Counted from the stretch's first letter, positions 24,488-44,268 are shown. The stretch is DNA of 55,247 nt from Candidatus Amesbacteria bacterium RIFCSPLOWO2_01_FULL_49_25 (GCA_001773725.1 MEXP01000027.1:1-55247); one strand, 5' to 3'. Made by a program: numbers and translations. Notes: generated by a model from the letters alone, not told the origin.

Positions 24488-24517
24488 ACTATACCTATCT
24501 TTTTGAATAAAATGCAA
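24488..24517 (-). promoter_or_regulatory. candidate sigma70 promoter for the fibre operon
   Basis: TTGCAT (24517-24512), 18 bp, TATAGT (24493-24488). Confidence 0.5.
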
Positions 24518-24525
24518 GACGATGT

Positions 24526-26373
24526 TTAGGCTAGCGAAAGAAATGCTTGTTCTAGATTCCGGGTGTAGCTTTTAGTATCAAATAATGGCCTTGATTTTCG
24601 ATTCAGGATTAATGATTTACGAATAGCGGCTAACTTTGGGGGGTGGGTGGCAAGGTCGACGGCCAATTCCTCATACTCCTTTTTGTTTTTGGCGATTAAT
24701 TGGGGTAGTCCGGCGGCCGTTAATGCAGAGGCGGAGACTCGAGAGGCGAAGTGGTGCCCTAGGATGGTAATTACGGGCACACCTGCCCACAGACAATCAA
24801 CAGTGGTAGTGTGGCCGTTGACGATATGCGTGTCTAAGACCAGATTGGCCAGACCAATCCGGGCTAAGTGATTCGCCTTGGGCATTTTGGCGGCGACGAT
24901 AATTTTATCTTTTGGCAAGCCCCTGGCTGCGGCTTCGTCAAGCAGGGTGCGGGTGATGACCGGATGGGGGGAGTACAACCAGAGGACGCTGTCTGGCACT
25001 TGGTGGAGAATCCTTGCCCAGGCGTCGAACATATCGGGCTCGATTTTGTAGGGGGTATTGAATGAGGCGAAGACGAATTTGTCTTGGGGCAGACCAAAGT
25101 CCTGTCTACTAAATTTTAAACTGGGAATTTTGAGTTTGTTGTCCGTGGGTCGGTAGCTGTGGGGGAGATAAATGACTTTTTCGCTATAGTATTTTTGGGA
25201 AGAAGGCGGGAGGACTACACGATCGGCAATCAGATAGTCTATAAATGCGGCGCCGGTGGTGCCTGGAAAGCCTAAGTAGGCTACTTGGATGGGGGCGGGC
25301 CGGTAGGCAAATATTTTTAACCTCGAGTCGTGGGTATGACCTTTTAAATCGACCAGGACATCGATCCCAAGCCGATTGATGAGCTTGGCGGCGCTTAAGT
25401 CGGAAAGTTTTCTAATGTCAATGAAATGGTCGACCGCGCTGGAAATTCTTTTTTGCCAAGCGCTTCGGTCATTGATGCCGTGGGAGAAAGCAAAGATTTC
25501 AAATAGCTGTTTATTGTGGTTTTCTAAAACTCCGACTATATTCTGGCCGGTGGGAAAATCTCTAAATCCATTCGAAATATAGCCAATTTTTAACTTTGGC
25601 CCCCTAGTTTTTTTATAGTGAGATTTGACATTTTTTTGTATTTGTTTGAGGAGGTTGTCGCTGACGGCTTTGGCAATCTTGAGGTTTTGAGCTTCGTCGT
25701 CTGAGCGGAGAATATTATTGAAAGCGGACTCGATTGGCTGGTCGGTTTTGGCTATCAGTTGGTCTAATTCTTGTGATGTTTTTTGTAAATCTTTCCAGAG
25801 GCTGAGTTTTTTCTGGACGTAAATAAGCGGAGCCCGGGGTTCGGCATACTGGACTTTTACGTCCAGTTTGACGGCCTGGGACAATAGCTTGTAGGCCTTG
25901 ACCAAATCTCCTCCTTCCAAGTAGGCGTTGCCCAAGTTGTTGCAATAAATAATGTTCTCCGGTTCGGCCTTGTGGGCCAGGGATAGATACTTAATGGCCA
26001 GTTTGGGTTTTTTTAATGTGAGGCAGGCGTTGCCGATGTTGTTGTAGATAGCCGAATTTTGGGGATCCAAATTGAGGGCTTTTTGATAGGCTTTGAGCGC
26101 CAGCTCATACTTGCCGATCTCGAAGTAAGCGACTCCCAAATTGACCAGGTACGTGGCCGATGAGGGGCCATATTCAACGGCTTGGAGGTAGTTTTTTATA
26201 GACTCGTCGAGATGGCCGGTTTCCTTGAAGGCTAGCCCCAGGTTGTAATAGGCATTGGCCAAGCCAGGGTTTACAGAAATGGCAAGCTGAAAGTATTCGA
26301 TGGCCTCGGTCAGTTGACCGGAATTGGCTAGGCGGATGCCCAGACTATTGTAATAATCGGCTTTGGTTGACAT
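24526..26373 (-). CDS. TPR + GT41 (OGT/SPINDLY-like) glycosyltransferase, paralog 1
   Basis: TPRs; IGYISNGFRDFPT, DLKGHT, RPAPIQVAYLGFPGTTG, FNTPYKI, LDTHIVNGHTTTVDCLWAGVP, ASRVSAS. Confidence 0.92.
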   Translation of the reverse strand: MSTKADYYNSLGIRLANSGQLTEAIEYFQLAISVNPGLANAYYNLGLAFKETGHLDESIKNYLQAVEYGPSSATYLVNLGVAYFEIGKYELALKAYQKALNLDPQNSAIYNNIGNACLTLKKPKLAIKYLSLAHKAEPENIIYCNNLGNAYLEGGDLVKAYKLLSQAVKLDVKVQYAEPRAPLIYVQKKLSLWKDLQKTSQELDQLIAKTDQPIESAFNNILRSDDEAQNLKIAKAVSDNLLKQIQKNVKSHYKKTRGPKLKIGYISNGFRDFPTGQNIVGVLENHNKQLFEIFAFSHGINDRSAWQKRISSAVDHFIDIRKLSDLSAAKLINRLGIDVLVDLKGHTHDSRLKIFAYRPAPIQVAYLGFPGTTGAAFIDYLIADRVVLPPSSQKYYSEKVIYLPHSYRPTDNKLKIPSLKFSRQDFGLPQDKFVFASFNTPYKIEPDMFDAWARILHQVPDSVLWLYSPHPVITRTLLDEAAARGLPKDKIIVAAKMPKANHLARIGLANLVLDTHIVNGHTTTVDCLWAGVPVITILGHHFASRVSASALTAAGLPQLIAKNKKEYEELAVDLATHPPKLAAIRKSLILNRKSRPLFDTKSYTRNLEQAFLSLA

Positions 26374-28168
26374 TGATGGACCAGATGGTGGAATAAGCTT
26401 TTTCTAAATCCCTGGTATAGGTGCGGGTATCGAATAAGGGTTTGGTTTTAATGTTTTTTTGAAGTTTGATTTTGAGCCGGCGCAATTTTTGCGGGTGAGT
26501 TGCCAGGTCAGTTGCCAATTTGGCGTAGTCTTTTAAATTTGGGGTAACTAACTCGCTGAGTCCAACGGCCGTTAGAACACTTTGGGATACCCGGGAAGCA
26601 AAATGACTGCCTTCGGTTGTGATTACGGGTACGCCGGCCCAGAGACAATCGACGGTGGTGGTGTGGCCATTGACGGGGGTTGTGTCCAAGGCAATGTCGC
26701 CAAGACCAACCCGGGCTAAATGAAATTCTTTTGGCAGTCGGGTGGCAAAAATAATCCGATCGGGGAGGATACCCAGATCTTTTGCCTGGGCATGAAGGTT
26801 GGTATTTGTGTCGGAATTGGTACTAAACAACCACAGGACGCTTTTGGGAACTGCTTTGAGAATTTTCATCCAAGCCAGAAATACTTCTTCCTCAATTTTG
26901 TAGGGCATATTAAATGATGAAAAAACTATGGCGGTTGCAGGGAGTCCAAAGTCCCGGCGAGAGTATTTGGCAGAGGACACATGCGGGTGGGCGTCGGCGG
27001 GCCTGTAGGAGAAGGGCAGATAGATGATTCTTTCGCTATAAAATTTCTTCTGGGAGGGGGGGATGACGATTTGGTCGGCAATTAAATAGTCTATAAATGG
27101 AGCGCCGGTTGTGCCGGGAAAACCGAGGTATGAGATTTGGACTGGGGCTGGCCGGAGGGCAAATATTTCCAGTTTGTTGGCCTCGGTGTGACCTTTAAGA
27201 TCGATGAGGATGTCAATCTTTTCTTCATGAATCTTTTTAGCGGCCTCGACAAATGAAAGACTGGACAGGTCTGAGAGATGGTCTACAGCCTGGCTGATTC
27301 TTTGTCTCCAATTGGTTTCGTCGCTGGCTCCGAAGCTGAAGGCGGTAACGTGGAACTGGCGGCGGTCGTGATTTTCCAATACCCCGATGAGATTGTGGGA
27401 GGTAGGGAAGTCCCGAAACCCGTTGGACAGATAGCCGATTTTGATTTGGCGGGGCGAGGGCTCTTGGGAAAATTTGAACCTGAGTTCTTGCTTGGCTTTG
27501 GCCATGGTGTGGTCAATAAATTGCCCCCATGACTTAGCTACGTGGTAATTAATTTTCGGGTCGGCCACTCGGACAATATTTAAAAAGGGAGGTTCAATTG
27601 ACTTTTCACCCCTTTTTAATTCATCGTTGATTATTTGATTTAGTTTGATGCCGGCTTGCCTGGCTTCCCGCCAGAGACATAAATATCTGAGAGTGTGGTA
27701 GAGGAGGTGGTGGGCTTTGTCGTAATTGGGATTTTTTTCGAGGGCTTTATTTAATTGGGCCAGGGCTTGGGTGTAGTCACCTTTTTTGGAAAATACCGTG
27801 GCTAGGGTGTATAGAGCTTGTTCAAAACCGGGATCCAGGGAGAGAGCGTGGTTTAGATAGCCTTGAGCTAGGTCTAATTTTTCGAGTCGGGCATAGGCGA
27901 CGCCCATGTTGTTGAATATGGCCGGGTGGTTGAAGAACTTACCGATGAGCCCGTTATAGTGGTCGATTGCCTGGGTGAATTGACCCCTGGCAATCATTAT
28001 TACTCCCAGGTTAATTTGGGAGAGCAAGTTTAGCTGGGCCAGAGTGAGCAGGGGATCGTCGGAAATCGCATCTTGATACATTTGTTCCGCCTCATCCAAT
28101 CGACCGGCGTTTTGCAAGATGACTCCCTGGTTGTATTTGCTGGTAATTTTAGAAATTTTATTTTGCAT
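26345..28168 (-). CDS. TPR + GT41 glycosyltransferase, paralog 2
   Basis: Same GT41 motif set (SNGFRDFPT, FNMPYKI, NGHTTTVD). Confidence 0.92.
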   Translation of the reverse strand: MQNKISKITSKYNQGVILQNAGRLDEAEQMYQDAISDDPLLTLAQLNLLSQINLGVIMIARGQFTQAIDHYNGLIGKFFNHPAIFNNMGVAYARLEKLDLAQGYLNHALSLDPGFEQALYTLATVFSKKGDYTQALAQLNKALEKNPNYDKAHHLLYHTLRYLCLWREARQAGIKLNQIINDELKRGEKSIEPPFLNIVRVADPKINYHVAKSWGQFIDHTMAKAKQELRFKFSQEPSPRQIKIGYLSNGFRDFPTSHNLIGVLENHDRRQFHVTAFSFGASDETNWRQRISQAVDHLSDLSSLSFVEAAKKIHEEKIDILIDLKGHTEANKLEIFALRPAPVQISYLGFPGTTGAPFIDYLIADQIVIPPSQKKFYSERIIYLPFSYRPADAHPHVSSAKYSRRDFGLPATAIVFSSFNMPYKIEEEVFLAWMKILKAVPKSVLWLFSTNSDTNTNLHAQAKDLGILPDRIIFATRLPKEFHLARVGLGDIALDTTPVNGHTTTVDCLWAGVPVITTEGSHFASRVSQSVLTAVGLSELVTPNLKDYAKLATDLATHPQKLRRLKIKLQKNIKTKPLFDTRTYTRDLEKAYSTIWSINVNQSRLLQ

Positions 28169-29861
28169 ATTCCCGCCAGATCTGAAAATATACCTTTTCT
28201 AAATGTTTAGTAAAGCCTGGAGTGTCAAATAGGGGATATGATTTTTTATTAATTTTTAATTTCGAATTTCTAATTTCTAATTCGTCTGGGTGTGTGGCTA
28301 GCCTGACAGCTAAGTCTTCATATTCTTTTAGAGAATGGGTGATGAGTTTGGGGAGGCCGATGGCTGACAGTGCGCTGGCGGACACGCGCGAGGCGAAATG
28401 GCGGCCTAAGATGGTAATTACTGGTACTCCTGCCCAGAGGGCGTCGACCGTAGTCGTATGTCCGCCTACTGGGTGGGTATCCAACATTAAATTCGCCATT
28501 TTCATCCGGGCCAAATGTTGGGGCTTGGGAAGATTTTTGGTAAATATGATACGACTCGGATTTATTCCAAGTTTTTTGGCCCAGGCTCGCAAATTTTTAT
28601 TGGCCGAAGCGCTTGCATGCAGCTGCCAGAGAATACTGTTTGGTACCCGTTTTAATATGTTCATCCAGCTGGTGAAGACTTGAGGAGTTATTTTGTAGGG
28701 TAAATTGAATGAGCCAAAAACAATGCCATCTTTTCGGGGAGGAGTAAATTTTTGTGTGGAAATGGGCGCTTTATTATCTGTGGCCCGGTAACAATCGGGT
28801 AGGTAGATGACCTTTTCTGAATAGTATTTTCGGGCAGACGCAGGGATAACTGTCTTATCGGCGATTAAATAATCCATAAAACCCGCTCCGGTGGTTCCGG
28901 GAAAGCCTAAATAAGAAACTTGAATTGGGGCAGGCCGCAAGGTGAAAATCTCTATCCGATTGTCGGCAGTGTAGCCCTTTAAGTCTACCAGAATATCAAT
29001 GTTCTGGTCGTAAATCATCTGGGAGGCTTGGACATGACTGGCTTGGGTGATGTCGATAAATTTGCGGCAGGCTTTGATAATTCTTTTGCGATACAAACTG
29101 TGATCGTCGGGCCCATATGAAAAGGCAAAGGCTTGGACGCGGGGGGAGTGGTTTTCTAAAACTCCGACCAGGTTGTGTCCGGTGGGGAAGTCGCAAAATC
29201 CGTTTGAGACATAGCCTATCCGCAGGGGATGGGTAAGGGCCGCTTTTTTGAATACAAAGGCCGGTTTTTGGAAGGACTGCCTTTTTTCGATCTTATCACT
29301 CCAACTTTTAGCCACCTGGAAGTTTATTTTGGGGTCTTCGCACCTGACGATATTGGTGAAAGGAGTATCAGCGGAGGGGGTATCTAAATTGTCCCAATCG
29401 CATATTTCTCTTTTTAATCCGTATAAAAAACTTTGGGTTTGCTGATCCCGGGGGTTTATCTTAAGCGCTTTTTGGTAATAATCCTTAGCCTGGGTTAGTT
29501 TTCCTTGATCGTGATAAAGAGTCCCGAGGCTGCTTAAGGCTTTGGCGTATTGGGGGTTAATTTTTAAAGCGGCCAGAAAATGTTTTTCCGAATCCGGATA
29601 TCTTTTGGTAATTTTGTAAATGGCGGCTAGGTTGACATGAGCTTCGGCTATATTGGGGTTTAATTTGATGGCATTCAGAAATTCGTCTCGGGCAGGAAGA
29701 TATCTGCCCAAATTTAAATACATGGTGCCCAAGTTGTTGTGGGCGGGGGCGAAATCGGGGTCAAGACTGAGAGCATGACTAAAGCGCCTGATGGCCTCGG
29801 GGTAGTTGCCCAAGGAGTAATATTTCAAACCTAAATTATTTAGTGTTTGCGGGTTGTCCAT
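28158..29861 (-). CDS. TPR + GT41 glycosyltransferase, paralog 3
   Basis: SNGFCDFPT, FNLPYKI, GGHTTTVD. Confidence 0.92.
   Translation of the reverse strand: MDNPQTLNNLGLKYYSLGNYPEAIRRFSHALSLDPDFAPAHNNLGTMYLNLGRYLPARDEFLNAIKLNPNIAEAHVNLAAIYKITKRYPDSEKHFLAALKINPQYAKALSSLGTLYHDQGKLTQAKDYYQKALKINPRDQQTQSFLYGLKREICDWDNLDTPSADTPFTNIVRCEDPKINFQVAKSWSDKIEKRQSFQKPAFVFKKAALTHPLRIGYVSNGFCDFPTGHNLVGVLENHSPRVQAFAFSYGPDDHSLYRKRIIKACRKFIDITQASHVQASQMIYDQNIDILVDLKGYTADNRIEIFTLRPAPIQVSYLGFPGTTGAGFMDYLIADKTVIPASARKYYSEKVIYLPDCYRATDNKAPISTQKFTPPRKDGIVFGSFNLPYKITPQVFTSWMNILKRVPNSILWQLHASASANKNLRAWAKKLGINPSRIIFTKNLPKPQHLARMKMANLMLDTHPVGGHTTTVDALWAGVPVITILGRHFASRVSASALSAIGLPKLITHSLKEYEDLAVRLATHPDELEIRNSKLKINKKSYPLFDTPGFTKHLEKVYFQIWREYAK
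28219..28364. repeat. 146-nt near-identical segment shared with 31988-32133
   Basis: Two mismatches over 146 nt; 118 nt are perfectly identical (28231-28348 = 32000-32117). Confidence 0.9.
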
Positions 29862-31924
29862 ATCTTTATGTACGCTTTTTCCAATTCCCGGGTGTATTTT
29901 TCGGTGTCAAACAAGGGTGATGATTTTATGTTTTGTTTAAGTCTATCTTTGAGTTTGCACAGTTTGTCGGGGTGGGCGGCTAAGTCAACAGCCACGCGCT
30001 GGTATTCTTTTAAATTTTTAGTTATAAGTTGAGGCAGGTTGATGGCGGTAAGCACACTCGCAGACACCCGCGAGGAAAAGTTTTTACCCAGCAGGGTAAC
30101 CACGGGCAGTCCCGCCCATAACGCGTCGACCGTAGTGGTATGACCATTGCAGGGGAATGTATCAAGAGCCAAATCTGCCAGTCTAAGGCGGGCTAAATGG
30201 TCCTCTTTTTTGGCATTTCCGGCAAACAAAATTCTTTGAGGGCTGATACCGCGGCGAACGGCTTCGTGTTTCAAATTAGTTTTAGCCAGATCGGTGGTAC
30301 ACCATTGCCAAAGTATAGAGCGCGGAACTGTTTTTAAAACTTTCATCCATACTCCAAACAGCTCTTTGGTGATCTTGTAAGTTTGATTAAATGAAGCGAT
30401 GACCAGTGAGTCCGGGGGTAAATTGAAATCGGACCGTTTAAATTTGTGAACACTTGCCCCTACTTGGTTATCGGTGGCTCGATAACTGATAGGTAAGTAA
30501 ACAATTTTTTCAGTAAAGAATTTTTGTGATTTTTCCGGGATAACTATGCGGTCAGCTATCATATAGTCTAAAAAGCCGGCTCCGGTTGTGCCGGGGAAGC
30601 CCAAGTAGGCTACTTGAATGGGGGCCGGCCGGTAGGCAAATATTTCCAGTCGATTCCCCCTGGTATAGCCTTTGAGATCGACTAAAATATTGATCTTGTC
30701 GGTTAAAATTCTTTTGGCGGCGGCGGCAAACTCTAAGTGGGAAATGTCAATAAATTTATCGGCAGTTTTTATAATTCTATCCCGATACACGCTTTTATCG
30801 TCCGGCCCGTGGGAATAAAGATAAATCTCAAATTGGCTGCGGTCGTGCAGTTCAAAGACGCGGGTAATGTTGTGGGCGGTGGGAAATTCGCGAAATCCGT
30901 CTGATACATATCCGATCCTGATTTTCTTATGCTTAATCCAGATTTTTGGGAAAATTAATTTGACGGGTGAAACTTCTATTTCATTACTCCAAGCTTTGGC
31001 TACTTGGAGATTTTTGGCCGGGTCGTCATCGTTGATGACGGAAAAAAAGGGAGTTTCCCCGGGGCGTCTATTTTGTTTGAGAGAGGCATTGGTATGGTTT
31101 TTCAGGTTTTTTTGGACATTTGTAAGCTCGTCCCACTGACAAGCCTGCTTGAGGGCGTAAGCAAAGTTGCCCTCGCTCTGGCCAAAATCGGGATTGACTT
31201 GTAAGGATTTTCTAAAGCAGTTGAGTGCTTCCTGAAGATTTCCCTGCGACTCATAGATGATGCCCATATTGTTGTGCACTTGGGCCAGGTCGGGCTTGAT
31301 TTCCAGACTTTTCTTGTACGATTCCAGGGCTTTTTCAGAGTCTCCTTTCATGCGCAGTACCAAGCCCAGATTGCCCATGGCTTCGGCAAACTCGGGCTTG
31401 ATTTGCAAAAGCTTTTGATAGACCTGAATTGCCTCGGAGAGCAGTTGGGAATTGTTGGTACTTGATCCCATGTTGGTCAAAAGAGTGGCTAAGTTGAAGT
31501 AAGCCTGACTGGATGTGGGATCAAGACTAATCGTTTGGGTAAAAAACTTTCGAGCTTTTTCCCAGCTGCCAATTTTTTTGTACAAGTTCCCCAGGGCCAG
31601 ACAAGCTTCACTGTCTTTTGGGTTCAGATTAATGGTCTGCCGGTAGGACGCGGCGGCTTGGGGATATTGTCTTAAAGATTCATAAAGACTGCCTAAATTG
31701 AAGTGGGCTGCCGTTTGGCGGGGATTTATTTTTAAAGCTTGTTTATATGCGGTGATTGCCGCTTGGGATTGGCCACGGCTTTGATAGGCGGCTCCCAAAT
31801 TGACATACACCTCGCCATAACCGGGATCGACTTGCAACGCTTTTTTGTAATTGGCAATTGCTTGCTGGTAGTCGCCTTTTAGGAAATAACCATACCCAGA
31901 CGAGAAATAATCTTTGGCGTTCAT
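29840..31924 (-). CDS. TPR + GT41 glycosyltransferase, paralog 4
   Basis: Start MNAKDYF at 31924 (ATGA overlap with paralog 5); SDGFREFPT, FNQTYKI, NGHTTTVD. Confidence 0.92.
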   Translation of the reverse strand: MNAKDYFSSGYGYFLKGDYQQAIANYKKALQVDPGYGEVYVNLGAAYQSRGQSQAAITAYKQALKINPRQTAAHFNLGSLYESLRQYPQAAASYRQTINLNPKDSEACLALGNLYKKIGSWEKARKFFTQTISLDPTSSQAYFNLATLLTNMGSSTNNSQLLSEAIQVYQKLLQIKPEFAEAMGNLGLVLRMKGDSEKALESYKKSLEIKPDLAQVHNNMGIIYESQGNLQEALNCFRKSLQVNPDFGQSEGNFAYALKQACQWDELTNVQKNLKNHTNASLKQNRRPGETPFFSVINDDDPAKNLQVAKAWSNEIEVSPVKLIFPKIWIKHKKIRIGYVSDGFREFPTAHNITRVFELHDRSQFEIYLYSHGPDDKSVYRDRIIKTADKFIDISHLEFAAAAKRILTDKINILVDLKGYTRGNRLEIFAYRPAPIQVAYLGFPGTTGAGFLDYMIADRIVIPEKSQKFFTEKIVYLPISYRATDNQVGASVHKFKRSDFNLPPDSLVIASFNQTYKITKELFGVWMKVLKTVPRSILWQWCTTDLAKTNLKHEAVRRGISPQRILFAGNAKKEDHLARLRLADLALDTFPCNGHTTTVDALWAGLPVVTLLGKNFSSRVSASVLTAINLPQLITKNLKEYQRVAVDLAAHPDKLCKLKDRLKQNIKSSPLFDTEKYTRELEKAYIKIWTTRKH

Positions 31925-35810: not shown

Positions 35811-37455
35811 ATTCCAGGTTTTGAGTATACTCGCGGATATTAAATATGGGGGCAGTTTTGTTAATTTGGGGAAGAGAGGCGGGATGCAAACCAAAATTTA
35901 CGGCCAATTTTTCGTATTCATTCAGGGTACGAGTAATCAATTGCGGCAGATTTGCGGCCGCAAGGACGCTGGCTGAAACCCGGGATGCGAAATGTCGGCC
36001 GATGAGTGTAATAACAGGTACTCCGGCTAGCAGACAATCGACCGTGGTGGTATGACCATTGGTAGGGAAAGTGTCAAGAGCGATATCGGCAAGCTGGAGT
36101 CGAGACAAATGGCTGGATTTTTCCAGTTTGGGAGCAAAAATGATTCTTCGGAAGTCGATACCGTTTTTGACAGCCTCTTTGTGAAGGTTGGATGCCGCCA
36201 AGCCGCTGCTTTGAAGCTGCCAGAGAATACTGCCGGGGACACTTTTTAGTATTTTCATCCAGATTGTAAATATTTGCGGAGTGATTTTATAAGTATGGTT
36301 AAATGAGGCAAATACTATTCCCTTGGACGGTAATCCTACTTGGGCCCGGGAGACTTTTTTTAGCTGGCTGGCTATTTGATTGTCGGTGGGTCTGTAACAG
36401 TGGGGGAGATAGATGACTTTTTCGGTATAGTGGTTCTTCTGGGCGGGGGGGATAGTTATTTTATCGGCAATGACATAGTCCAAAAAAGCGGCGCCAGTGG
36501 TACCGGGATATCCCAAGTAAGAAATTTGGATTGGAGCGGGCCGGTAAGCCAATATTTCCAGGCGGTTTCCCGAACTGTGGCCTTTGAGGTCGATCAGAAT
36601 ATCAATTTTGTCTGCATGAATTTGATTGGCGGCTGCGAAATTGCTGGCTCGGTTTATGTCGCGGATAGTATCAAACGCGGCCGCGGATCTTTTTTGCCAC
36701 GGGCTGTCGTCTGTTGTTCCCCAGGTATAGCCGTGGACAATAAACTTAGTTTTGTCATGACTTTCAAGTAAGCCGACAATGTTATGGCCGGTGGGAAAAT
36801 TTTTGAGTCCATCTGATAAATAACCGAGCCTGATCTTTTTGCCCCTTTTTGAATAATTAAATGTACTTTTTTTGGAAAAAACGGCGCTTTGCTTTTGGGC
36901 CAGAATTTTGTTTTGAGCCGGGTTATCGGTAAAAATTAAATGCAGAAAAGGACTTAAGTTTTCCAACTCGAGAAGTTTAGCTAAATCTGACTTTCTGGAT
37001 TTCCAATCACAGGCTTTATCCAATTCATGCCGGAGAATGCTTAACAAATGTAGATTGCCGGGGTTGTTGATTAACCCCTTTTTTAAAATACCAACCGCTT
37101 TTGAGTTGCGGCCGTAAGCGCTAAGCAATAGCCCAAGGTTTTTGTAGGCCGAGGCGTTATGCGGGTCTATTTGAAATGCTTTGGTATATGCGCTAGTGGC
37201 TAAATTGATTTTTCTTAAGCCTTCGTACGCCAACCCCAAATTGTAATAAACTCTGGCCAGTCCGGTAATTTTGGCTTTTTGAAGATAGTGTACGGCCTGG
37301 GAAAAGTTGTTTTTTTTCAAATGACATACACCGATATCGTTGTAGACAAAATGAGCGCTAGGATTGGACTTTAAATGTCGAGAAAATAAAGTCAGAGATT
37401 TATCCCAATCCCCCTGGTGCAGGCAGGATAGCCCTTGGTTGTATAGGTCATCCAT
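35788..37455 (-). CDS. TPR + GT41 glycosyltransferase, paralog 7
   Basis: SDGLKNFPT, FNHTYKI, NGHTTTVD. Confidence 0.92.
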   Translation of the reverse strand: MDDLYNQGLSCLHQGDWDKSLTLFSRHLKSNPSAHFVYNDIGVCHLKKNNFSQAVHYLQKAKITGLARVYYNLGLAYEGLRKINLATSAYTKAFQIDPHNASAYKNLGLLLSAYGRNSKAVGILKKGLINNPGNLHLLSILRHELDKACDWKSRKSDLAKLLELENLSPFLHLIFTDNPAQNKILAQKQSAVFSKKSTFNYSKRGKKIRLGYLSDGLKNFPTGHNIVGLLESHDKTKFIVHGYTWGTTDDSPWQKRSAAAFDTIRDINRASNFAAANQIHADKIDILIDLKGHSSGNRLEILAYRPAPIQISYLGYPGTTGAAFLDYVIADKITIPPAQKNHYTEKVIYLPHCYRPTDNQIASQLKKVSRAQVGLPSKGIVFASFNHTYKITPQIFTIWMKILKSVPGSILWQLQSSGLAASNLHKEAVKNGIDFRRIIFAPKLEKSSHLSRLQLADIALDTFPTNGHTTTVDCLLAGVPVITLIGRHFASRVSASVLAAANLPQLITRTLNEYEKLAVNFGLHPASLPQINKTAPIFNIREYTQNLEYALTKLS

Positions 37456-38998
37456 TGATTGACAGGTAGGCTTGTTCTAGATCGAGGGTAAACTGTTTAG
37501 TATCAAATAGGGCTGAGGATTTGGACACTTGAGGTAGCTTTTGAGGATGAGTGGCTAGATTGACGGCCAAATCTTCATAACTTTTTAAGTTTTTGGTGAT
37601 CAGCTGGGGGAGGCCCGCGGAGGTTAATATGCTGGCCGACACACGAGAGGCAAAATGTGTCCCCAAAGTTGTGACCACCGGAACGCCGGCCCATAAACAT
37701 TCGAGTGTAGTAGTGTGACCATTGACAGGGGTTGTGTCCAAGGCCAAATCGGCCCGGCTGAGCCGAGCCAGGTGTTGATCCGGGGGAAGTTTGCCAGCGA
37801 ATAGGATGCGACTGGGATTGACTCCCAGCTGAAGCGACTGCAGCCGGAGGTTTTTTGGGGCATGGCCTTCGGCCCATAACCAGAGGCGACTTTCGGGAAC
37901 GCGTTTTAAAATATTCATCCACACTTTAAACACTGGCGGTTCGGTTTTGTAACTTTGGTTGAATGAGCAGAAGGTGAAAGTTTTATTGATTTTTTTCTTG
38001 AGGGGAACTTTTGATCCAAAGTCGTAAATTTGGTACGTGTGGGGCATATAGATGGGCCTTTCGGTGTAATACTTTAGTTCATGCCGGGGGGTAACGATTT
38101 TGTCTGTCACAATGTAATCTATGAAAGAAGCTCCGGTGGTACCGGGAAAGCCCAGCCAAGCGATTTGAACTGGTGCGGGCCGGAGGCTAAAGACGTCGAG
38201 TTTGCCGTGTTGGGTATGGCCCTTGAGGTCGACGAGAATATCCACCCTTTCATTGGCAATTGTCTGGGCGAACTGTAAGGAGTTGACGCCCTGTAAGTCA
38301 ATAAATTCATCGGAGTAATTTTGGGCTAGGCGCCGGTAGATTGAATGATCGTCGGTTCCGTAGGAAAACAAGATAATTTTGAATAGCTGCTTGTTGTGGT
38401 GGCGCAAAAGTCCGGTTATTTTGTGGCCGGTGGGGAAGTCGCGAAACCCATCGGAAACGTAGCCGATGGTTATGCGATTATTTTTAATTCGAGGAGGAAG
38501 TTTAACTGACAGGCCAGCAGTTTCTTTTTGAATAGAGCGGCTCCAATTCCTGGCCACTTGAAAGTTGTGAGCCGGATTGGGGTCCGTAATGATATTGAAG
38601 AAGGGGGTTTGGTCACAGAGGGGGGGCGTCAGAGTGCGATCTAACTCCTGCCAGGCGCAAATGCTTTTTAAATAAAAAATGTGTCTAAGGCGGGCCGCTG
38701 TATTGTGCGGATTAATTTCCAGTGCTTCTTTTAGCCGGCCCAAATTACTCAAGGCTGAACTCAAATTAACGCGAGCTTTTTGATAGTCGGGCTTTAGGGC
38801 GACGGCCCGACGGTACCATTTGATGGCGGCCAGGTATTTTTGCTGGCGGGCGAAGGCGTTTCCCAGATTGAAGTTGAGGATAGAATTGTCCGGGTCAAGT
38901 TTTAAGGCTTGGGAAAAGAGTTTTCCAGCTATCTGGAAATGTCCTTGTTTCTGGGCCAGATTGCCTTGCTCGTTTAACAGGTTTACCGCATCGTCCAT
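37448..38998 (-). CDS. TPR + GT41 glycosyltransferase, paralog 8 (short TPR region)
   Basis: SDGFRDFPT, FNQSYKT, NGHTTTLE. Confidence 0.92.
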   Translation of the reverse strand: MDDAVNLLNEQGNLAQKQGHFQIAGKLFSQALKLDPDNSILNFNLGNAFARQQKYLAAIKWYRRAVALKPDYQKARVNLSSALSNLGRLKEALEINPHNTAARLRHIFYLKSICAWQELDRTLTPPLCDQTPFFNIITDPNPAHNFQVARNWSRSIQKETAGLSVKLPPRIKNNRITIGYVSDGFRDFPTGHKITGLLRHHNKQLFKIILFSYGTDDHSIYRRLAQNYSDEFIDLQGVNSLQFAQTIANERVDILVDLKGHTQHGKLDVFSLRPAPVQIAWLGFPGTTGASFIDYIVTDKIVTPRHELKYYTERPIYMPHTYQIYDFGSKVPLKKKINKTFTFCSFNQSYKTEPPVFKVWMNILKRVPESRLWLWAEGHAPKNLRLQSLQLGVNPSRILFAGKLPPDQHLARLSRADLALDTTPVNGHTTTLECLWAGVPVVTTLGTHFASRVSASILTSAGLPQLITKNLKSYEDLAVNLATHPQKLPQVSKSSALFDTKQFTLDLEQAYLSING

Positions 38999-40770
38999 AG
39001 TTTTTGAAATGCCTTTTCGAGATCTCTGGTATAGCTTTTGGTGTCAAAAAGGATCGATTGTTTGTCTACCGGGGGGAGCCGGTCGGGGTGGGCGGCTAAT
39101 TCCACGGCCAGGTCCGCATAACTTTTTAGGTTTTTGGTGATGAGCTGGGGGAGACCGGCGGCTGTTAATGCGCTGGAGGAAACACGGGAGGCGAAATTTC
39201 TACCCGCCATGGTGATGACGGGGACGCCAGCCCATAGACAGTCGACCGTGGTAGTGTGACCGTTGGTGGGATAAGTATCCAGGGCCAAGTTGGCTCGGCT
39301 AAGCCGGGCCAGGTGCTGGGGTTTGTCCATTTCATGAATATATGTGATTCTTGCGGGGTCGACTCCGTATTTTTTGGTGTAAGCGGTTAATTTTTGGCGC
39401 ACCGGATTGTCTTCTACCCATATCCAGAGAACGGTTTTGGCGGTTCTTTTGAGGATATTCAGCCAAGCTTTAAACATTGCCTCTTCTATTTTGTAGGATG
39501 AGTTAAACGAGGCAAAGATAAAGGATCGGGATGGTTGGAGTGGGGGAGGGTGGATCTTAAATCTGGTATCGGTCGGGCGATAACAATGAGGCAAGTAAAT
39601 GACTTTCTCGGTGTAGTATTTTTGGGCGGAGGGGGGAATTACTATTTTGTCAGCAACGATATAGTCCATGAATTTGGCTCCGGTAGTACCCGGATAGCCT
39701 AAGTAATTGACTTGGACGGGGGCGGGTCTTGCGGCAAAAATTCCCAGCCGATTGTTTTGAGTGTGACCTTTGAGGTCGACCAAAATATCTATTTGAAGCT
39801 GGTTGATTAACTTGGCGGTCTCCGGATCCGAAAGGCTGTCGATTTCTATAAAATGATCCACGGCTTCGATGACTTTCTTTCTCCAAATGCTTTTGTCGTT
39901 GGGTCCCCACGAAAAGGCAAAAATCTCGTACTTATCCTTATTGTGGCTGCGGAGTACTTCAAGCAAGTTGTGGGTGGTGGGAAAGTCTCTGAAGCCGTCT
40001 GTGGCATAGCCAATTTTCAAACGAGAATGGTGGTTGGGATAATTAAATTTAACAGGTTCGTAATATAGGGAATTACTCCACACTCTTGCTATAACCAGAT
40101 TATCTTGGGGGTTGTCACTGCGGGTGATATTAATAAACGGAGTTTCACCCGGGTCGGGACTGTTCAGACTATTTAGTATTTGAGAAAACTCCTTGGTTTT
40201 GGCCCAGTCGCATCTATTGCGATAGTATTCGTAGAGGCTGGTGATAGCGCGGGCGTGGCGGGGATTTTTATCGACGGCTAGTTGGTAATATTTGACTGCA
40301 AGCGAGGTTTTGCCTTGTTTGCTGTGAGTCAGTCCCAGATTATATAGGGCGTCGGCGGAGGGGTTTTTGACGATAGTCTGTTTAAATAAAAGTTTGGCTT
40401 TATCCAGTTGGCCCTGTTGGGATAAGACAACTCCCAGATCATTGGCGGCTTGTGAGTTATTAGGGTTTATCAGGAGGAGTCTTTCCAGAGTTTTTTTGGC
40501 GGCTGGCAATTTGCCCAAATGAAGTTGTGTTAACCCCAGATTGTAAAGAACTATTTCATTTTCTGGTTCCAATTCGAGAGCTTTGGTGAAGGTTGACTCG
40601 GCCGCTGATAATTTTCCTAAATCGGACAGGCTGGCTCCCAAGTTGATATAGGCGTTTAATAAATTGGGATCGGCCCGGATGGCTTTTTGGAAATATTCGA
40701 CCGCCCGGTTGAACTGCCGGCGCTGGTAGAAGTGAAAACCTTTTTGAAAAAAAGTCAGTGCATCATCCAT
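38983..40770 (-). CDS. TPR + GT41 glycosyltransferase, paralog 9
   Basis: TDGFRDFPT, FNSSYKI, NGHTTTVD. Confidence 0.92.
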   Translation of the reverse strand: MDDALTFFQKGFHFYQRRQFNRAVEYFQKAIRADPNLLNAYINLGASLSDLGKLSAAESTFTKALELEPENEIVLYNLGLTQLHLGKLPAAKKTLERLLLINPNNSQAANDLGVVLSQQGQLDKAKLLFKQTIVKNPSADALYNLGLTHSKQGKTSLAVKYYQLAVDKNPRHARAITSLYEYYRNRCDWAKTKEFSQILNSLNSPDPGETPFINITRSDNPQDNLVIARVWSNSLYYEPVKFNYPNHHSRLKIGYATDGFRDFPTTHNLLEVLRSHNKDKYEIFAFSWGPNDKSIWRKKVIEAVDHFIEIDSLSDPETAKLINQLQIDILVDLKGHTQNNRLGIFAARPAPVQVNYLGYPGTTGAKFMDYIVADKIVIPPSAQKYYTEKVIYLPHCYRPTDTRFKIHPPPLQPSRSFIFASFNSSYKIEEAMFKAWLNILKRTAKTVLWIWVEDNPVRQKLTAYTKKYGVDPARITYIHEMDKPQHLARLSRANLALDTYPTNGHTTTVDCLWAGVPVITMAGRNFASRVSSSALTAAGLPQLITKNLKSYADLAVELAAHPDRLPPVDKQSILFDTKSYTRDLEKAFQKLWTMR

Positions 40771-42371
40771 AAATAGGCTGCCTCCAGTCTTTTTGTGTAC
40801 GCCTGGGTGTCGAAGAGGGGAGTCTTTTGGGAGACTCGGGGAAGTTTGGATGGTTGAAGGCCAAAATCGATAGCTAATTTAGCGTAGTGTTTTAAATCGC
40901 GGGCTACGAGTTGGGGTAGGCCGGCTGCGGAGAGGACGGTGGCGGAGACTCGAGAGGCAAAATGTGTCCCCAGGGTAGTAATTACGGGCACGCCTGCCCA
41001 CAAACAGTCGACAGTAGTGGTGTGGCCGTTGACGGGGGTGGTATCTAACGCCAGGTCGGCGTGACTTATGCGGGCGAGGTGGTCGGCTTTGGAGAGTCGG
41101 CCTGCCAAAATTATTTTGGAAGGATTTACGCGATGCTTTTTGGCTTCTCTAATCAAGTTTTGGATTGCCGCTGCGTTGGTGACGTATAACCATAAAACAC
41201 TTCCGGGAACGCGGTTGAGTGCGGCCATCCAGACTGCAAAAACTTCGGGCGTGATTTTGTAATGACCGTTGAAAGAAGAATAGATAAAGCCTTTTTCGGG
41301 TAGCCCCAGACTGGATCTGGTGAATTTTGATTTGTGGATTTTGAATTTGTTTTCGGTGGGTCGATAACAGTGGGGAAGACGGATAATTTCTTCGGTAAAA
41401 TATTCGTTTTCATTGGGGGGATTGACTATTTTATCGCCGATAAAATAGTCTATGAAGGAGGCTCCCGACGTGCCTGGGAAGCCGAGGTAATTGACCTGAA
41501 TCGGTGCGGGGCGGCGGGCAAAGATGCCTAGCCGGCCGCCGCTGGTATGACTTTTTAGGTCGACCAGGATATCTACCTGGTCCTGGTAAATTTTGGCAGC
41601 GGCGGCTTGATCTGCAGCTGGGCTTAAATCGATAAATTCGTCGGCCAGGGAGGCGATTTCTCTTCTAATTTGACTCTGGTCATCGGGGCTAAAGGAATAA
41701 GCCAGTATTCGGAATTTATCGCGGTTGTGGCAGCGAAACAAGCCGGTGATGGTATAGGCTGTGGGAAAATCACGGAATCCGTCTGAAGCATAACCTACGG
41801 TGATAACTTTTCCCGGCTTTTTTTTGCAAATAAAGGGTGTAATTTGTTGAAGAGCCGCTTGGCTGTAGGCCCTGGCAATTTGTAAGTTGCGCTGGGGATC
41901 GGCCGACCGAATAACGCTCATAAACGGCTGTTCACCAGGTTTTTTTCCCAAGGCAAGCTCTTGCGATGTAATTTTATCCAGCTGACGTGCCAACTGGGGG
42001 CGGGTCCAATCACATATGAATGGCAGGCGATTGACTAAGTGGGCGAGAGCCTGGGAGTTATGGGAGTTAATGGCATAAGCTTTTAAGTACTGGTCTATGG
42101 CTTCGGAATATTTATCCTGACGGGCATAGGCAATCCCTAGGTTGAAGTAGGCGAAATCAGACTTAGAATCCAATTTGATGGCTTGTTGATATGCTTCAAT
42201 GGCCTGGGTAAACTTCCCCAGCCGGGAAAGAGTTACCCCTAGATTGCTGAAGGCAAACTTGTTGGTGGGATATGCCCGGGTTTGCTTTTGATAAACTTCG
42301 CTAGCTGCTTTTATCTGTCCAGAATCTAGCAGCTGGCTGCCCAATTTTTCGAACTCTTCAATGGTGGTCAT
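40755..42371 (-). CDS. TPR + GT41 glycosyltransferase, paralog 10
   Basis: SDGFRDFPT, FNGHYKI, NGHTTTVD. Confidence 0.92.
   Translation of the reverse strand: MTTIEEFEKLGSQLLDSGQIKAASEVYQKQTRAYPTNKFAFSNLGVTLSRLGKFTQAIEAYQQAIKLDSKSDFAYFNLGIAYARQDKYSEAIDQYLKAYAINSHNSQALAHLVNRLPFICDWTRPQLARQLDKITSQELALGKKPGEQPFMSVIRSADPQRNLQIARAYSQAALQQITPFICKKKPGKVITVGYASDGFRDFPTAYTITGLFRCHNRDKFRILAYSFSPDDQSQIRREIASLADEFIDLSPAADQAAAAKIYQDQVDILVDLKSHTSGGRLGIFARRPAPIQVNYLGFPGTSGASFIDYFIGDKIVNPPNENEYFTEEIIRLPHCYRPTENKFKIHKSKFTRSSLGLPEKGFIYSSFNGHYKITPEVFAVWMAALNRVPGSVLWLYVTNAAAIQNLIREAKKHRVNPSKIILAGRLSKADHLARISHADLALDTTPVNGHTTTVDCLWAGVPVITTLGTHFASRVSATVLSAAGLPQLVARDLKHYAKLAIDFGLQPSKLPRVSQKTPLFDTQAYTKRLEAAYLWMMH
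40940..41045. repeat. 106-nt near-identical segment shared with 42580-42685 (paralogs 10 and 11)
   Basis: Four mismatches over 106 nt; the last 50 nt are identical. Confidence 0.85.
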
Positions 42372-42928
42372 AAGGCATGGTGCATCTGAAAAAATGCCAT
42401 TTCTAAATTCCTAGTATATTGTTTGGTGTCAAACAAGGGACAGGATTTGATTTGCTGTCTAAGTCTACTTTTGAGTCTAAGCAGCTTCTGGGGATGGGTG
42501 GCCAAGTCGACTGCCAGATTTTCATATTGAGATAGGTTGGAGGTGATTAGCTGGGGGAGACCTACGGCTTTTAGACAGCTGGCGGAGACTCTAGAGGCAA
42601 AATGTGTCCCAATGGTAGTAATTACGGGCACGCCGGCCCACAAACAGTCGACAGTAGTGGTGTGGCCGTTGACGGGGGTGGTATCCAGGGCCAAATCACT
42701 CTTGGATAGTCTTTGCAGATGCTCTCGTTTGGGAAGAGTGGGGACGAAGATAATTCTGGTCTTGTCGACCCCGCTTTTTTTGGCTTGAAGAACTAAATTG
42801 TTTTCGGTGTACTGGTGAGTATGTAGTAACCAAAGGACACTTTCGGGGACTCTGGTTAATGTTCTCATCCAAGCGGTGAATACATCGGCCTCGATTTTGT
42901 AGGCGGAATTAAGACAGGAAAAAACCAT
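42368..42928 (-). CDS. GT41 paralog 11, C-terminal catalytic lobe (separate frame, 186 aa from ATG 42928)
   Basis: MVFSCLNSAYKIEADV...LPKREHLQRL...LDTTPVNGHTTTVD...; the upstream part of the tracked ORF is out-of-frame junk. Confidence 0.75.
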   Translation of the reverse strand: MVFSCLNSAYKIEADVFTAWMRTLTRVPESVLWLLHTHQYTENNLVLQAKKSGVDKTRIIFVPTLPKREHLQRLSKSDLALDTTPVNGHTTTVDCLWAGVPVITTIGTHFASRVSASCLKAVGLPQLITSNLSQYENLAVDLATHPQKLLRLKSRLRQQIKSCPLFDTKQYTRNLEMAFFQMHHAL

Positions 42929-44138
42929 TATCAGTTGGGCGGTAGCTGTCGGGTAAATAGAGAACTTTTTCAGAGTAGTACTTGTGTTCCGTTTCGGGAA
43001 TGACGGTTTTATCGGCAATAATGTAGTCCAAAAAACCGGCGCCCGTTGTGCCGGGGAAACCCAGATAAGAGATCTGAATGGGGGCAGGGCGGCGGGCAAA
43101 GATACCAATTCTGTTGCCCAGCAAATAGCCTTTCAAATCGACCAGTATTTCAATTTTATCCCGGATTATTATTTGGGCGGCCTGGTGGTCATCCAGGGAC
43201 GTAAGATCGGTTTGTCGGGGGACAGCTTTGTTTATCCGCCGGGCCCAGATACTGTTGTCGCTTGGCCCCAGGTGATAAAGAAAAACTTTGAACTTACTTT
43301 TGTCTAGATTCTCCAGTACACCTACCAAATTATGGGCGGTGGGAAAATCGCGGAATCCATCCGAGACAAATCCGATAGATATTTTTTTCGATGGTGTTAG
43401 CCGATGCCCAGCTTTTTGGGGCGGCTTAAATTTTTCGCTCCACCATTTGGCAATGCGGAAGTTTTCCCGGGGGTCAGCATGCCTGATAATGGACATCATT
43501 GGCTCTTCGAAAACTTGTGTTTTTTGGAGCGAATCCAGCTGCTTTTCTATTTGAGGAAGATCTTCCCATTGGCAAGCGTGCTTTAATTGATAGGCATAGT
43601 GGGCCAGAGTTGGCCCAAATAGGGGATTGACCTGCAAAGCCTGGCGAAACAATTTAAACGCGGCGGGGAAATGACCTGATTGGGCATACCAGATGGCCAA
43701 GTTATTCAGAGCCTCCAGGTGGCGGGGATTTGATTGTAAAGTTTTTTCGTAATAGTAGCGGGCATTATCTAATTTGTGACTGTGGCAATAAACTCCCATG
43801 TAGAAGTTGGCTTCTTCATCCTGGGGATTTAATTTGAGAGCCAGATTCAGGTGATGGAGGGCTGATTTTGGCTTACCAAGTTTGAGAAGTATAGTTCCCA
43901 GGTTTGATTGGGTGATAGGGTTACTTGGATTTAATCGGGCTGATTTTTTGAAAAGTGCCAACGCTTTGTCTTCCCGGCGGGTGGCGTTGTAAACAGCGGC
44001 CAGATTGTTAATTACGTCTGCGCTGTGGGGATGTGTTTTTAGGATTTGTTTATAAGCGGCTTCTGCTACAAAGTAGTCTTGGTTTGTAAAAGCCTGACTG
44101 GCGATTATTAGCTGTTCGTTTACATCCGCCATTTTCAT
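42909..44138 (-). CDS. GT41 paralog 11, TPR + N-terminal catalytic lobe (stops at the inter-lobe linker)
   Basis: TPRs, CQW, SDGFRDFPT, RPAPIQISYLGFPGTTG, ends YRPTDNGFFLS*. Confidence 0.85.
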   Translation of the reverse strand: MKMADVNEQLIIASQAFTNQDYFVAEAAYKQILKTHPHSADVINNLAAVYNATRREDKALALFKKSARLNPSNPITQSNLGTILLKLGKPKSALHHLNLALKLNPQDEEANFYMGVYCHSHKLDNARYYYEKTLQSNPRHLEALNNLAIWYAQSGHFPAAFKLFRQALQVNPLFGPTLAHYAYQLKHACQWEDLPQIEKQLDSLQKTQVFEEPMMSIIRHADPRENFRIAKWWSEKFKPPQKAGHRLTPSKKISIGFVSDGFRDFPTAHNLVGVLENLDKSKFKVFLYHLGPSDNSIWARRINKAVPRQTDLTSLDDHQAAQIIIRDKIEILVDLKGYLLGNRIGIFARRPAPIQISYLGFPGTTGAGFLDYIIADKTVIPETEHKYYSEKVLYLPDSYRPTDNGFFLS

Positions 44139-44144
44139 TGACCG

Positions 44145-44153
44145 ATTTTATCA
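44145..44153 (-). promoter_or_regulatory. extended -10 at the head of the GT41 array (leaderless)
   Basis: TGA-TAAAAT lies 6 nt upstream of ATG 44138. Confidence 0.55.
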
Positions 44154-44268
44154 GAATGTTATACCCATCATAAGGAAATTTACATGCGCAGACACGCATT
44201 TCGATGGGTATATATCCGTCATACTTTTGCAAATTCGAGTATGACGGTTATAGAATGGCTTTTGGAAT

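Follow-up and report, generated by a model that had tools for sequence, protein, structure and literature searches.

The GT41 array

The stretch of DNA analysed here (referred to as the window; 55,247 nt, contig MEXP01000027.1) belongs to an uncultured groundwater bacterium, Candidatus Amesbacteria RIFCSPLOWO2_01_FULL_49_25. Eleven consecutive minus-strand units, each joining tetratricopeptide repeats (TPRs) to a catalytic region of glycosyltransferase family GT41, the family of the O-GlcNAc transferase OGT, fill positions 24526-44138 with no intergenic DNA at all. An earlier note on this DNA had described eleven consecutive genes without gaps and a twelfth paralogue, which is borne out by the open reading frames (ORFs) and by the Pfam model PF13844 (Glyco_transf_41). 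Together the twelve genes occupy about 21.9 kb, or 40% of the 55-kb window.

Numbered along the plus strand, the units are g1 (24526-26373, 615 aa, about five TPRs), g2 (26345-28168, 607 aa), g3 (28158-29861, 567 aa), g4 (29840-31948, a 702-aa ORF called as 694 aa, about eight TPRs), the divergent g5 (31921-34029, a 702-aa ORF called as 693 aa, about eight TPRs), g6 (33999-35810, 603 aa), g7 (35788-37455, 555 aa), g8 (37448-38998, 516 aa, about three TPRs), g9 (38983-40770, 595 aa) and g10 (40755-42371, 538 aa, about three TPRs). The first gene of the array in the direction of reading, g11, consists of an N-terminal fragment (42909-44138, 409 aa) with the TPRs and the N-terminal catalytic lobe, and a C-terminal fragment (42368-42928, 186 aa) with the C-terminal catalytic lobe. 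The detached twelfth paralogue, g12 (49124-51391, minus strand, 755 aa), bears C-terminal TPRs besides the N-terminal ones.

When the longest ORFs are taken, neighbours overlap by 29, 11, 22, 28, 31, 8, 16, 16 and 4 nt, and g7 and g6 by 107 nt because the longest g6 ORF reaches 35894; with g6 started at the ATG at 35810, as in the public gene calls, this last overlap is 23 nt. Later starts for some of the array genes in the public calls give 4-nt overlaps. The overlap of all neighbours noted earlier therefore holds, whereas its range, put at 4-29 nt, becomes 4-31 nt once g6 starts at 35810, and of the eleven genes taken as intact ten are so and the eleventh is two ORFs. The gapless arrangement of overlapping genes suggests coupled expression. 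It was also observed that the GC skew of the plus strand is positive throughout the window (0.10-0.41 per 2-kb segment) irrespective of gene orientation. The coding strand of the array is therefore C-rich, a strand asymmetry unusually strong for a bacterium.

Assembly integrity and population

An assembly artefact, in which variants of a single GT41 gene or of a few, from different strains, had been joined in a row, was considered and is extremely improbable; as far as short reads go, it is refuted. Nothing was found to speak for it, and repeats inside the array are short. Fourteen independent assemblies from several studies and assemblers (ENA, JGI and NCBI GCA_001775605.1) are colinear with the window at 99.6-99.99% identity and without real indels, unitig depth across 24400-44300 is flat at single copy in four runs, and the paralogues are only 40-59% identical even in their most similar part. 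The colinear assemblies and the flat depth show that the array is real, as the earlier note had supposed, and no mis-assembly.

The sole exception in depth is a 118-nt unitig (32000-32117, about 2-3x). It lies inside a 146-nt tract shared by g3 (28219-28364) and g5 (31988-32133), the two copies of which are 98.6% identical, compared with 60-74% for most paralogous DNA tracts. This tract is a recent gene conversion. Another stretch, of 224 nt, is shared at 85% identity by g6 (34588-34811) and g9 (39557-39780) and could reflect an earlier conversion.

The array region was found in at least 20 runs, from soil, groundwater and sediment, and the exact g1 and g11 N-fragment proteins are recorded in 41 and 36 collection blocks, respectively. 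Four runs together showed nine single-nucleotide polymorphism (SNP) positions and no indels over 19.9 kb, and in about 20 runs the population is close to clonal. Frameshifts of g8 and of the nearby GDP-mannose 4,6-dehydratase (GMD) gene in one assembly (L093) were rejected as runs of N at scaffold gaps. Likewise, the shorter g2 and g4 of the NCBI record are not real differences: the record differs from the window by just two SNPs, so that the shorter calls reflect a different choice of start. In the 517-aa methyltransferase-domain gene of the locus, positions 47633-47748 hold about 28 substitutions and two 1-nt indels that are common to L093 and a second assembly (L089). The rest of the locus in both is nearly identical to the window, and the cluster resembles a short stretch recombined in from a diverged strain.

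Family, fold and TPR domains

All twelve units score 128-346 bits with PF13844 against a cut-off of 25, with E-values of 7e-76 to 6e-103 for the ten intact array genes (6.5e-96 for g1) and of 5e-48 and 5.5e-37 for the two pieces of g11. N-terminal TPRs are present in every unit, and signal peptides or transmembrane segments are not evident in the paralogue sequences. Among solved structures the best match of g1 is human OGT, at E 1e-123 over the full length. Its C-terminal lobe (C-lobe) scores 170 bits with human OGT and 146 with fly OGT, followed by the bacterial XcOGT (101) and TtOGT (84) and by the plant O-fucosyltransferase SPINDLY (SPY; 77). The NCBIfam equivalog model for N-glycosyltransferases (NGTs), NF049992, gave 30.6 bits against a cut-off of 1000, so that membership of the HMW1C-type NGTs is not indicated.

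Of the paralogues, g1 alone was modelled. The model (predicted local distance difference test, pLDDT, 87; predicted template-modelling score, pTM, 0.83) has five TPRs, that is ten helices, followed by the two Rossmann-like lobes of a GT-B fold. It superposes on human and fly OGT with template-modelling (TM) scores of 0.80-0.85 and on XcOGT with a target-normalised TM-score of 0.90 and a root-mean-square deviation of 2.7 Å. The intervening domain of metazoan OGT is absent: residue 421 of the query bridges positions 717 and 830 of the human OGT chain, and about 110 residues have no counterpart. The CDW and NGHTT motifs noted earlier are present as C[DAQ]W and NGHTT and align to those of human OGT. 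Judged from these sequence comparisons, the paralogues are GT41 proteins of the OGT type and not of the HMW1C or SPY type; the C-lobe scores, the low NGT score and the g1 superposition agree with the earlier placement nearer OGT than HMW1C.

The contrast between conserved catalytic lobes and TPR regions differing in number and sequence, also described before, is confirmed by identities among paralogues of 40-59% in the catalytic region and 17-34% in the TPR region, which is 112-268 aa long and has about three to eight repeats. Despite this divergence every paralogue has N-[LIMV]-[GAS] at a spacing of 34 residues (for example at 44, 78, 112 and 146 in g1). This corresponds to the Asn ladder, the element that in human OGT spans TPRs 3-14 and binds the substrate as an extended peptide (PMC9715652).

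Among the candidates scored from a collection of 5.8 billion proteins, no close orthologue of g1 (above 60% identity) was found outside its own population. A search with the catalytic profile led to short-TPR relatives, the few named ones being from Woesebacteria, Roizmanbacteria, a 'PAT1' soil bin, Desulfobacterales/Desulfosarcina, Hyphomicrobiales and a Hermodarchaeota archaeon, and the full-length g1 search added a match in Levybacteria.

A syntenic relative with orthologous TPRs

A related locus was found on ena:ERZ25072999:ctg289100 (merged from L099 and L095), at 37% GC compared with 46% in the window. Overall 44-49% identical to the window locus, it has a g12-like gene with C-terminal TPRs at the matching place and nine gapless GT41 genes (rA to rI), after the last of which the contig ends. 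It also has Methyltransf_24, DUF268 and 327-aa-like genes that are 46-49% identical to those of the window, together with genes for a sugar epimerase, a dehydratase and an isomerase.

Full-length best hits between the two arrays are collinear (rB-g11, rC-g9, rD-g8, rE-g6, rF-g5, rG-g4, rH-g3 and rI-g2). When the N-terminal TPR parts were compared by themselves, six pairs were clear collinear reciprocal best hits: g11-rB (158 bits, next best 119), g9-rC (184, next 124), g5-rF (345, next 188), g4-rG (245, next 188), g3-rH (152, next 116) and g2-rI (182, next 113). Orthologous TPRs are 35-57% identical, compared with 25% for non-orthologous pairs across the two genomes. No clear partner was found in the relative for g10, g7 or g1, and for g1 the contig ends too early to tell. 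The collinear reciprocal best hits indicate that the array is old and that the individual TPR domains have been kept distinct, so that, on this sequence comparison, the individual paralogues appear to have been kept apart for a long time. Conservation of much of the set in order, including the g5-type member discussed below, argues for a multi-part glycosylation system rather than redundant copies.

Trees built from the catalytic domains alone group these by genome and recover only two of the pairs, g5 with rF (neighbour-joining bootstrap 98%) and g4 with rG (60%). The proportion of F, Y, M, I, N and K residues (FYMINK) is 0.29 in the window and 0.40 in the relative. Since so strong a difference in composition could itself produce clustering by genome, concerted evolution of the catalytic domains is claimed for the visible g3/g5 tract only. 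As a separate observation, rD, the counterpart of g8 (L099 15277-17005), is also split, into 82 and 499 aa with the cut inside the TPR region; the contig is labelled as 3x coverage and an assembly error in rD is possible.

Active site, gate residue and the divergent g5

The alignment with human OGT is gapless over the C-lobe, so that residues map by arithmetic. Nine positions were followed: K842, K898, H901, R904, C917, H920, T921/T922 and D925. In human OGT the K842M change nearly abolishes activity, and none is detectable with K898A, D925A or D925N (PMC2556091). All mapped nucleotide and diphosphate positions are kept in ten paralogues (g1-g4, g6, g7 and g9-g12 among the units other than g5 and g8), and g8 keeps all except K898 (Pro) and D925 (Glu). 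The position of C917 is the gate residue, proposed to set donor size in GT41, and is Tyr or Phe in SPY, XcOGT, TtOGT and HMW1C (PMC9715652). In the window it is Val in eight units (among them g1), Cys in one (g4), Thr in two (g7 and g9) and Tyr in g5 alone. Such a small gate is compatible with a donor of UDP-HexNAc size and is no proof of one.

Only T922 is kept in g5, the other changes being K842R, K898F, H901F, R904A, the Tyr gate, H920G, T921A and D925Q. Much of this is shared with its orthologue rF: both have N-FED(M/K)PV in the N-terminal lobe in place of DGFRDFPT, Phe at 898 and 901, Ala at 904, the Tyr gate, NGGATT in place of NGHTTT and a residue other than Asp at 925. Among 291 catalytic modules tabulated (53 + 238), R904 is lost in g5 and rF only, and His901 in these two and one other (P0037, Tyr). 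The g5-rF pair is also the sole orthologous pair in which the TPRs (57% identity) are better conserved than the catalytic region (47%). A less extreme form, the Y-NGGAT variant with H901 and R904 retained, is found in a 748-aa GT41 protein of a Woesebacteria-type locus (L100), in the 701-aa P0481 and in one Hyphomicrobiales module.

SPY resembles g5 in its Tyr gate, in Ala at the position of R904 and in having neither His920 nor Asp925, and it uses GDP-fucose (PMC9715652). GMD and sugar aminotransferase genes lie 17 kb from g5 in the same locus. A description of g5 as simply 'dead' was softened, because SPY has A904, a Tyr gate and a residue other than His at 920, and because the Y-NGGAT variant recurs in other lineages. 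From its residues, g5 probably does not use the same donor as the other paralogues or is non-catalytic; it may be either a TPR adaptor without catalysis or an enzyme for another nucleotide sugar.

The split gene g11

The N-terminal piece of g11 ends at a TAA, and the C-terminal piece starts at an ATG (42928) 20 nt earlier, so that it overlaps the stop of the N-fragment by 20 nt. Compared with the other paralogues, about 20 aa of the linker between the lobes are missing, beside a run of six T. The cut falls exactly between the catalytic lobes, which is the site of the inserted domain in human OGT; both pieces keep every motif, and the overlap of stop and start resembles the other junctions of the array. 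As the split is identical in 22 of 22 contigs read, it is a fixed feature and no sequencing slip. The orthologue rB in the relative is intact. GT-B enzymes can work as two chains, as in Alg13/Alg14, and with this precedent g11 is as likely to be a functional two-chain enzyme as a young pseudogene.

The region upstream of the array

The array is preceded by a divergent intergenic region of 130 nt (44139-44268). The single leaderless promoter that had been proposed for the array is not supported: promoter and terminator scans were near shuffled expectation, and no minus-strand promoter was called upstream of g11. A TAAAAT ending 7 nt upstream of the g11 start codon is visible by eye, and a Shine-Dalgarno sequence is absent. 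Two inverted repeats lie in this region (44211-44225/44238-44252, 15 nt, 93%; 44160-44169/44203-44212, 10 nt, 100%) and may be operator sites. A promoter-like TTGCAA-18-TAGAAT at 44227-44256 faces the plus-strand gene for a 327-aa protein on the other side.

The neighbourhood and candidate acceptors

That gene opens a divergent unit of three (44269-48381, plus strand). Its own product, of 327 aa, has no family; the second protein (524 aa) carries DUF268 at its C-terminus and the third (517 aa) Methyltransf_24. For the first, and for the N-terminal parts of the other two, Pfam and NCBIfam scans at relaxed thresholds gave nothing usable, with a WecG/TagA-like hint below threshold. Directly downstream of g12 is a 249-aa S-adenosylmethionine (SAM)-dependent methyltransferase (48369-49118, minus strand). 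GMD follows at 51418-52464 on the plus strand (TIGR01472, 488.8 bits against a cut-off of 415), then a called gene of 130 aa and, at 52867-53937, a sugar aminotransferase of the LegC/PseC family that is below the NCBIfam cut-offs; all three lie on the plus strand within 51418-53937.

On the downstream side of the array are four minus-strand genes whose products are candidate acceptors: a 144-aa protein directly next to the array (24035-24469), a 1013-aa all-beta protein rich in Thr, Ser and Gly (20986-24027; 13.5%, 9% and 10%, respectively), a 336-aa protein (19852-20862) and a 434-aa beta-helix protein (18538-19842). The 1013-aa protein had no Pfam or PHROG match. Its family comprises 144 proteins with E <= 1e-5 among the candidates scored; the 120 listed are 34-98% identical to it, and about 100 of these cover the whole query at lengths of about 970-1120 aa. 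All are unnamed or 'hypothetical', the sole organism label being Patescibacteria group bacterium. The predicted structure (pLDDT 85.6) is almost all beta, and no fold was assigned: fold searches gave only weak local similarities, with TM-scores no higher than 0.12, to baseplate- or fibre-like proteins of phages and to FMG1B, a flagellar glycoprotein of Chlamydomonas.

Homologues of the 1013-aa and beta-helix proteins were found near GT41 genes elsewhere. The Woesebacteria-type locus L100 (58% and 68% identity, respectively) has three GT41 genes and a methyltransferase, and L096 has four GT41 genes with a GT4 and a methyltransferase. In two further loci the pair is adjacent and lies apart from GT41 genes: L097 is a sugar-modification cluster with no GT41 within 10 kb, and L098 has a phage-like context. 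The contig of the GT41-rich relative (at least ten copies) ends before the acceptor side. The link of GT41 with the pair is therefore recurrent, not universal, and GT41 copies per neighbourhood number three (L100), four (L096), at least ten (the 37%-GC relative) and twelve (the window).

The phage-like neighbours in L098 are Phage_30_3, GIY-YIG/NUMOD3, HNH and an RNA ligase, and the 1013-aa/beta-helix pair may be of phage-fibre ancestry. A phage origin of the window itself was rejected, as there was no DNA match among 50,697 phage records, essentially no PHROG matches for the neighbours, and cellular genes were present (ArgRS, MreB, TatC, L1, NDK). Two of these have unusual ORFs. The nucleoside-diphosphate kinase (NDK) ORF (5026-5658) is 210 aa long and matches the 135-position Pfam model in two stretches, and the ribosomal protein L1 ORF (10409-11272) is 287 aa long and matches the L1 model at residues 165-281 alone; these oddities could be insertions, extensions or over-long ORF calls. 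A tatC gene (15763-16506, minus strand) is flanked by five small TatA/B/E-family genes (15453-17047), and in L096 and L100 tatC is likewise surrounded by tatA genes, in clusters of three and four, in synteny with the GT41/beta-helix locus. No flagellin or pilin was recognised among the window ORFs scanned.

GT41 arrays and fused modules elsewhere

Several of the 80 best loci from species-representative genomes have tandem GT41 genes. A Micropepsaceae metagenome-assembled genome (MAG) carries seven with 4-nt overlaps, and MAGs of Desulfococcaceae and Hyphomicrobiales have ORFs of 1,356-2,891 aa that each hold two to four complete TPR-GT41 modules (L007 819-9494 and 9884-15967; L010 10001-17434; L037 8967-13037 and 13048-17853), with three or four in the ORFs of 2,891, 2,477 and 2,027 aa. 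When 1.84 billion representatives were searched exhaustively with g5, 33,220 proteins matched at E <= 1e-30, and most of the best 150 matches are 1,000-3,855 aa long with 2-18 matched stretches. The architecture is thus not unique, since gapless arrays and fused modules recur elsewhere; twelve is the highest number of separate GT41 genes among the loci compared. Full-text searches found no papers on GT41 arrays, on multi-module GT41 proteins or on GT41 in candidate-phyla bacteria.

Interpretation

The reading that we favour, at a probability of roughly 0.5, is that the locus encodes co-expressed soluble protein glycosyltransferases of the OGT type whose TPRs direct each to its own acceptor or site, all within one system. 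Each unit would be a soluble enzyme made of an N-terminal TPR superhelix with the Asn ladder and a C-terminal GT-B domain, and the paralogues would O-glycosylate protein in the cytoplasm. The TPR domains, being diverged and yet conserved individually, most likely assign to each enzyme its own acceptor protein or site. This proposal, made before from the TPRs of OGT, has gained comparative support from the six collinear TPR orthologues (35-57% against 25% identity) and is weakened by one member that is divergent (g5) and one that is split (g11). The overlapping genes would be coupled in expression, as a putative operon. Modules that are separate here are fused elsewhere, which suggests, on the Rosetta-stone principle, that they cooperate in a single task and may form hetero-oligomers.

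For the eleven standard pockets a donor of the UDP-HexNAc type is put forward tentatively, with the odds somewhat against it. The most likely acceptors would be the Thr-rich protein of about 1000 aa and its beta-helix partner directly downstream, a possible assignment on gene order and composition that we regard as doubtful. That hetero-oligomers form with g5 as adaptor seems unlikely, and the same is to be said of a wider version, according to which the paralogues are subunits of one hetero-oligomeric machine with a g5-type adaptor or alternate-donor subunit, conserved across candidate-phyla (Microgenomates-type) bacteria and decorating the 1000-aa all-beta and beta-helix proteins. If it were true, the decorated pair would form a glycosylated surface or fibre structure of episymbiotic cells, and the fused proteins of two to four modules in other phyla would be the same machine as one chain.

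Several findings weigh against the favoured reading or its parts. XcOGT and TtOGT, the closest solved bacterial relatives, have little or no O-GlcNAc activity in vitro (PMC9715652). A V or C gate is also common in the other bacterial GT41 modules (238 homologues tabulated), and so the small gate would not single out GlcNAc. K898 is variable in these modules and H920 varies in about 20 of the 238, which makes motif-based calls of activity soft. The GMD product is a GDP-sugar, with no fit to UDP-type pockets unless g5 or the unassigned neighbours use it. The candidate acceptors have no recognisable signal peptide, and no twin-arginine motif that could link them to the adjacent Tat genes was found in the window ORFs. 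The acceptor pair also occurs without GT41 in L098, and without it within 10 kb in L097. No RNA runs holding the array region were found.

Three other explanations were weighed against the favoured one. Regulatory glycosylation across the proteome, in which the set would tag proteins with single sugars as OGT does, each TPR domain covering a slice of the proteome and the structural neighbours being unrelated, would account for a C-lobe nearer to human OGT than to any solved bacterial GT41, for enzymes that are soluble, without evident signal peptides or transmembrane segments, and for candidate acceptors without export signals. We nevertheless consider it improbable, because the GT41 genes stand amid sugar-nucleotide and methyltransferase genes beside the 1013-aa and beta-helix proteins in loci of three, four and twelve copies, the relative with at least ten copies keeps methyltransferase and sugar genes, and no O-GlcNAcase partner was seen in the window. 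The sugar genes would instead suit paralogues that act in sequence on the same sites, each adding a different or a further sugar in the way that HMW1C puts hexose upon hexose, and their number reflecting the length of a glycan and not the diversity of acceptors: besides GMD and a sugar aminotransferase the locus encodes a nucleotidyltransferase and at least three proteins with methyltransferase domains, the gate residue is not uniform (V, C, T, Y), the nucleotide pocket of g5 differs with its SPY-like A904 and Tyr gate, and fused multi-module proteins exist elsewhere. The part conserved from orthologue to orthologue is, however, the peptide-binding TPR and not the sugar pocket, which is nearly identical in ten paralogues. 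Apart from the glucose-glucose links made by HMW1C, no GT41 was found described that transfers to a sugar acceptor (PMC9715652). Stepwise glycan building is accordingly given little weight, about the same as tagging across the proteome.

Less probable again is a fast-evolving or partly decaying array for surface variation, for example against phages or for host switching, with members that are largely interchangeable. Copy numbers of 3, 4, at least 10 and 12 among relatives would agree with it, as would the 146-nt conversion tract of g3 and g5, the splits in g11 and in rD, and the clustering of catalytic domains by genome. Against this, the population of about 20 runs is nearly clonal (the nine SNPs in 19.9 kb and the lack of indels in four runs), the g11 split is fixed and not variable, six collinear TPR orthologues are retained in a relative whose locus is 44-49% identical, and the clustering by genome may be an effect of composition (GC 46% against 37%; FYMINK 0.29 against 0.40).

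GT41 has been studied almost entirely as single genes: in eukaryotes these are OGT and SPY, and in bacteria a handful of orphans with weak or unknown activity. Seen together with the fused GT41 proteins, the present locus suggests that multi-GT41 systems form a widespread class that has gone unstudied. For candidate-phyla bacteria it signals that much DNA is spent on protein glycosylation, about 22 kb or 40% of the window, and it draws attention to a neighbouring family of proteins of about 1000 aa without any annotation. Twelve natural TPR variants on a nearly constant catalytic chassis, with genes for candidate acceptors close by, would also be a tractable test of TPR-encoded choice of acceptor.

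Comparison with known systems

With human and Drosophila OGT (PDB 3PE3, 4GYW, 5A01) the paralogues share the Asn ladder, the CDW junction, FNxxYK, PKxxHxxR, NGHTT..D and a small gate. They differ in lacking the intervening domain, in having three to eight TPRs compared with the longer run of OGT, and in number, there being twelve paralogues and not one gene. In addition, Phe stands at the position of H498 of human OGT, and H558 is not conserved. XcOGT (2JLB, 2VSY) and TtOGT (5DJS) are, like the paralogues, bacterial short-TPR GT41 proteins without the intervening domain, and XcOGT is the best architectural match. Their gate residue is Tyr, in contrast to V, C or T in 11 of the 12 paralogues; they are less similar in sequence than human OGT is, and were characterised singly and not in arrays.

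SPY of Arabidopsis (7Y4I, 8DTF) is a TPR-bearing GT41 protein as well, and g5 has its Tyr gate, its Ala904 and its loss of H920 and D925. The other 11 paralogues are OGT-like (H920, R904, and D925 except for Glu in g8), and the C-lobe score with SPY is the 77 bits given above. Two further residues set g5 apart from SPY: the stacking His (H728 of SPY) is missing, as is the essential Lys, which rF retains. SPY functions as a dimer with a 2:2 stoichiometry (PMC9715652).

Soluble bacterial proteins with TPRs and a GT-B domain that decorate secreted filament proteins in the cytoplasm are found in Caulobacter (FlmG) and Synechococcus (Ogt). Binding of the acceptor and specificity both reside in the TPR domain of FlmG (PMC7591256). 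Pilin glycosylation requires Ogt, which is a precedent for a soluble bacterial O-glycosyltransferase. Both differ from the present case in having one enzyme per system in the cited papers and no arrays, and FlmG transfers pseudaminic acid onto flagellins. An FlmG-type system would be encoded with its flagellin and a nonulosonic-acid pathway; the window has the LegC/PseC-family aminotransferase, which is below its cut-offs, and no recognised flagellin among the ORFs scanned. HMW1C-like NGTs are soluble GT41 enzymes that modify a large secreted adhesin, with a Phe gate in ApHMW1C. HMW1C is not known to carry TPRs, and the residue that it modifies is Asn.

Gapless GT41 arrays and fused modules are thus known from other bacteria, and the array is a variant deployment of a known family and not a new system. 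What is new is the ordered, conserved set of many paralogues, its conserved aberrant member and the link to an unannotated family of proteins of about 1000 aa. Among the multi-GT41 systems compared, the others of which are uncharacterised, the window stands out for the largest number of separate genes, for the member that has degenerated furthest and for a gene that is split at the boundary between the lobes.

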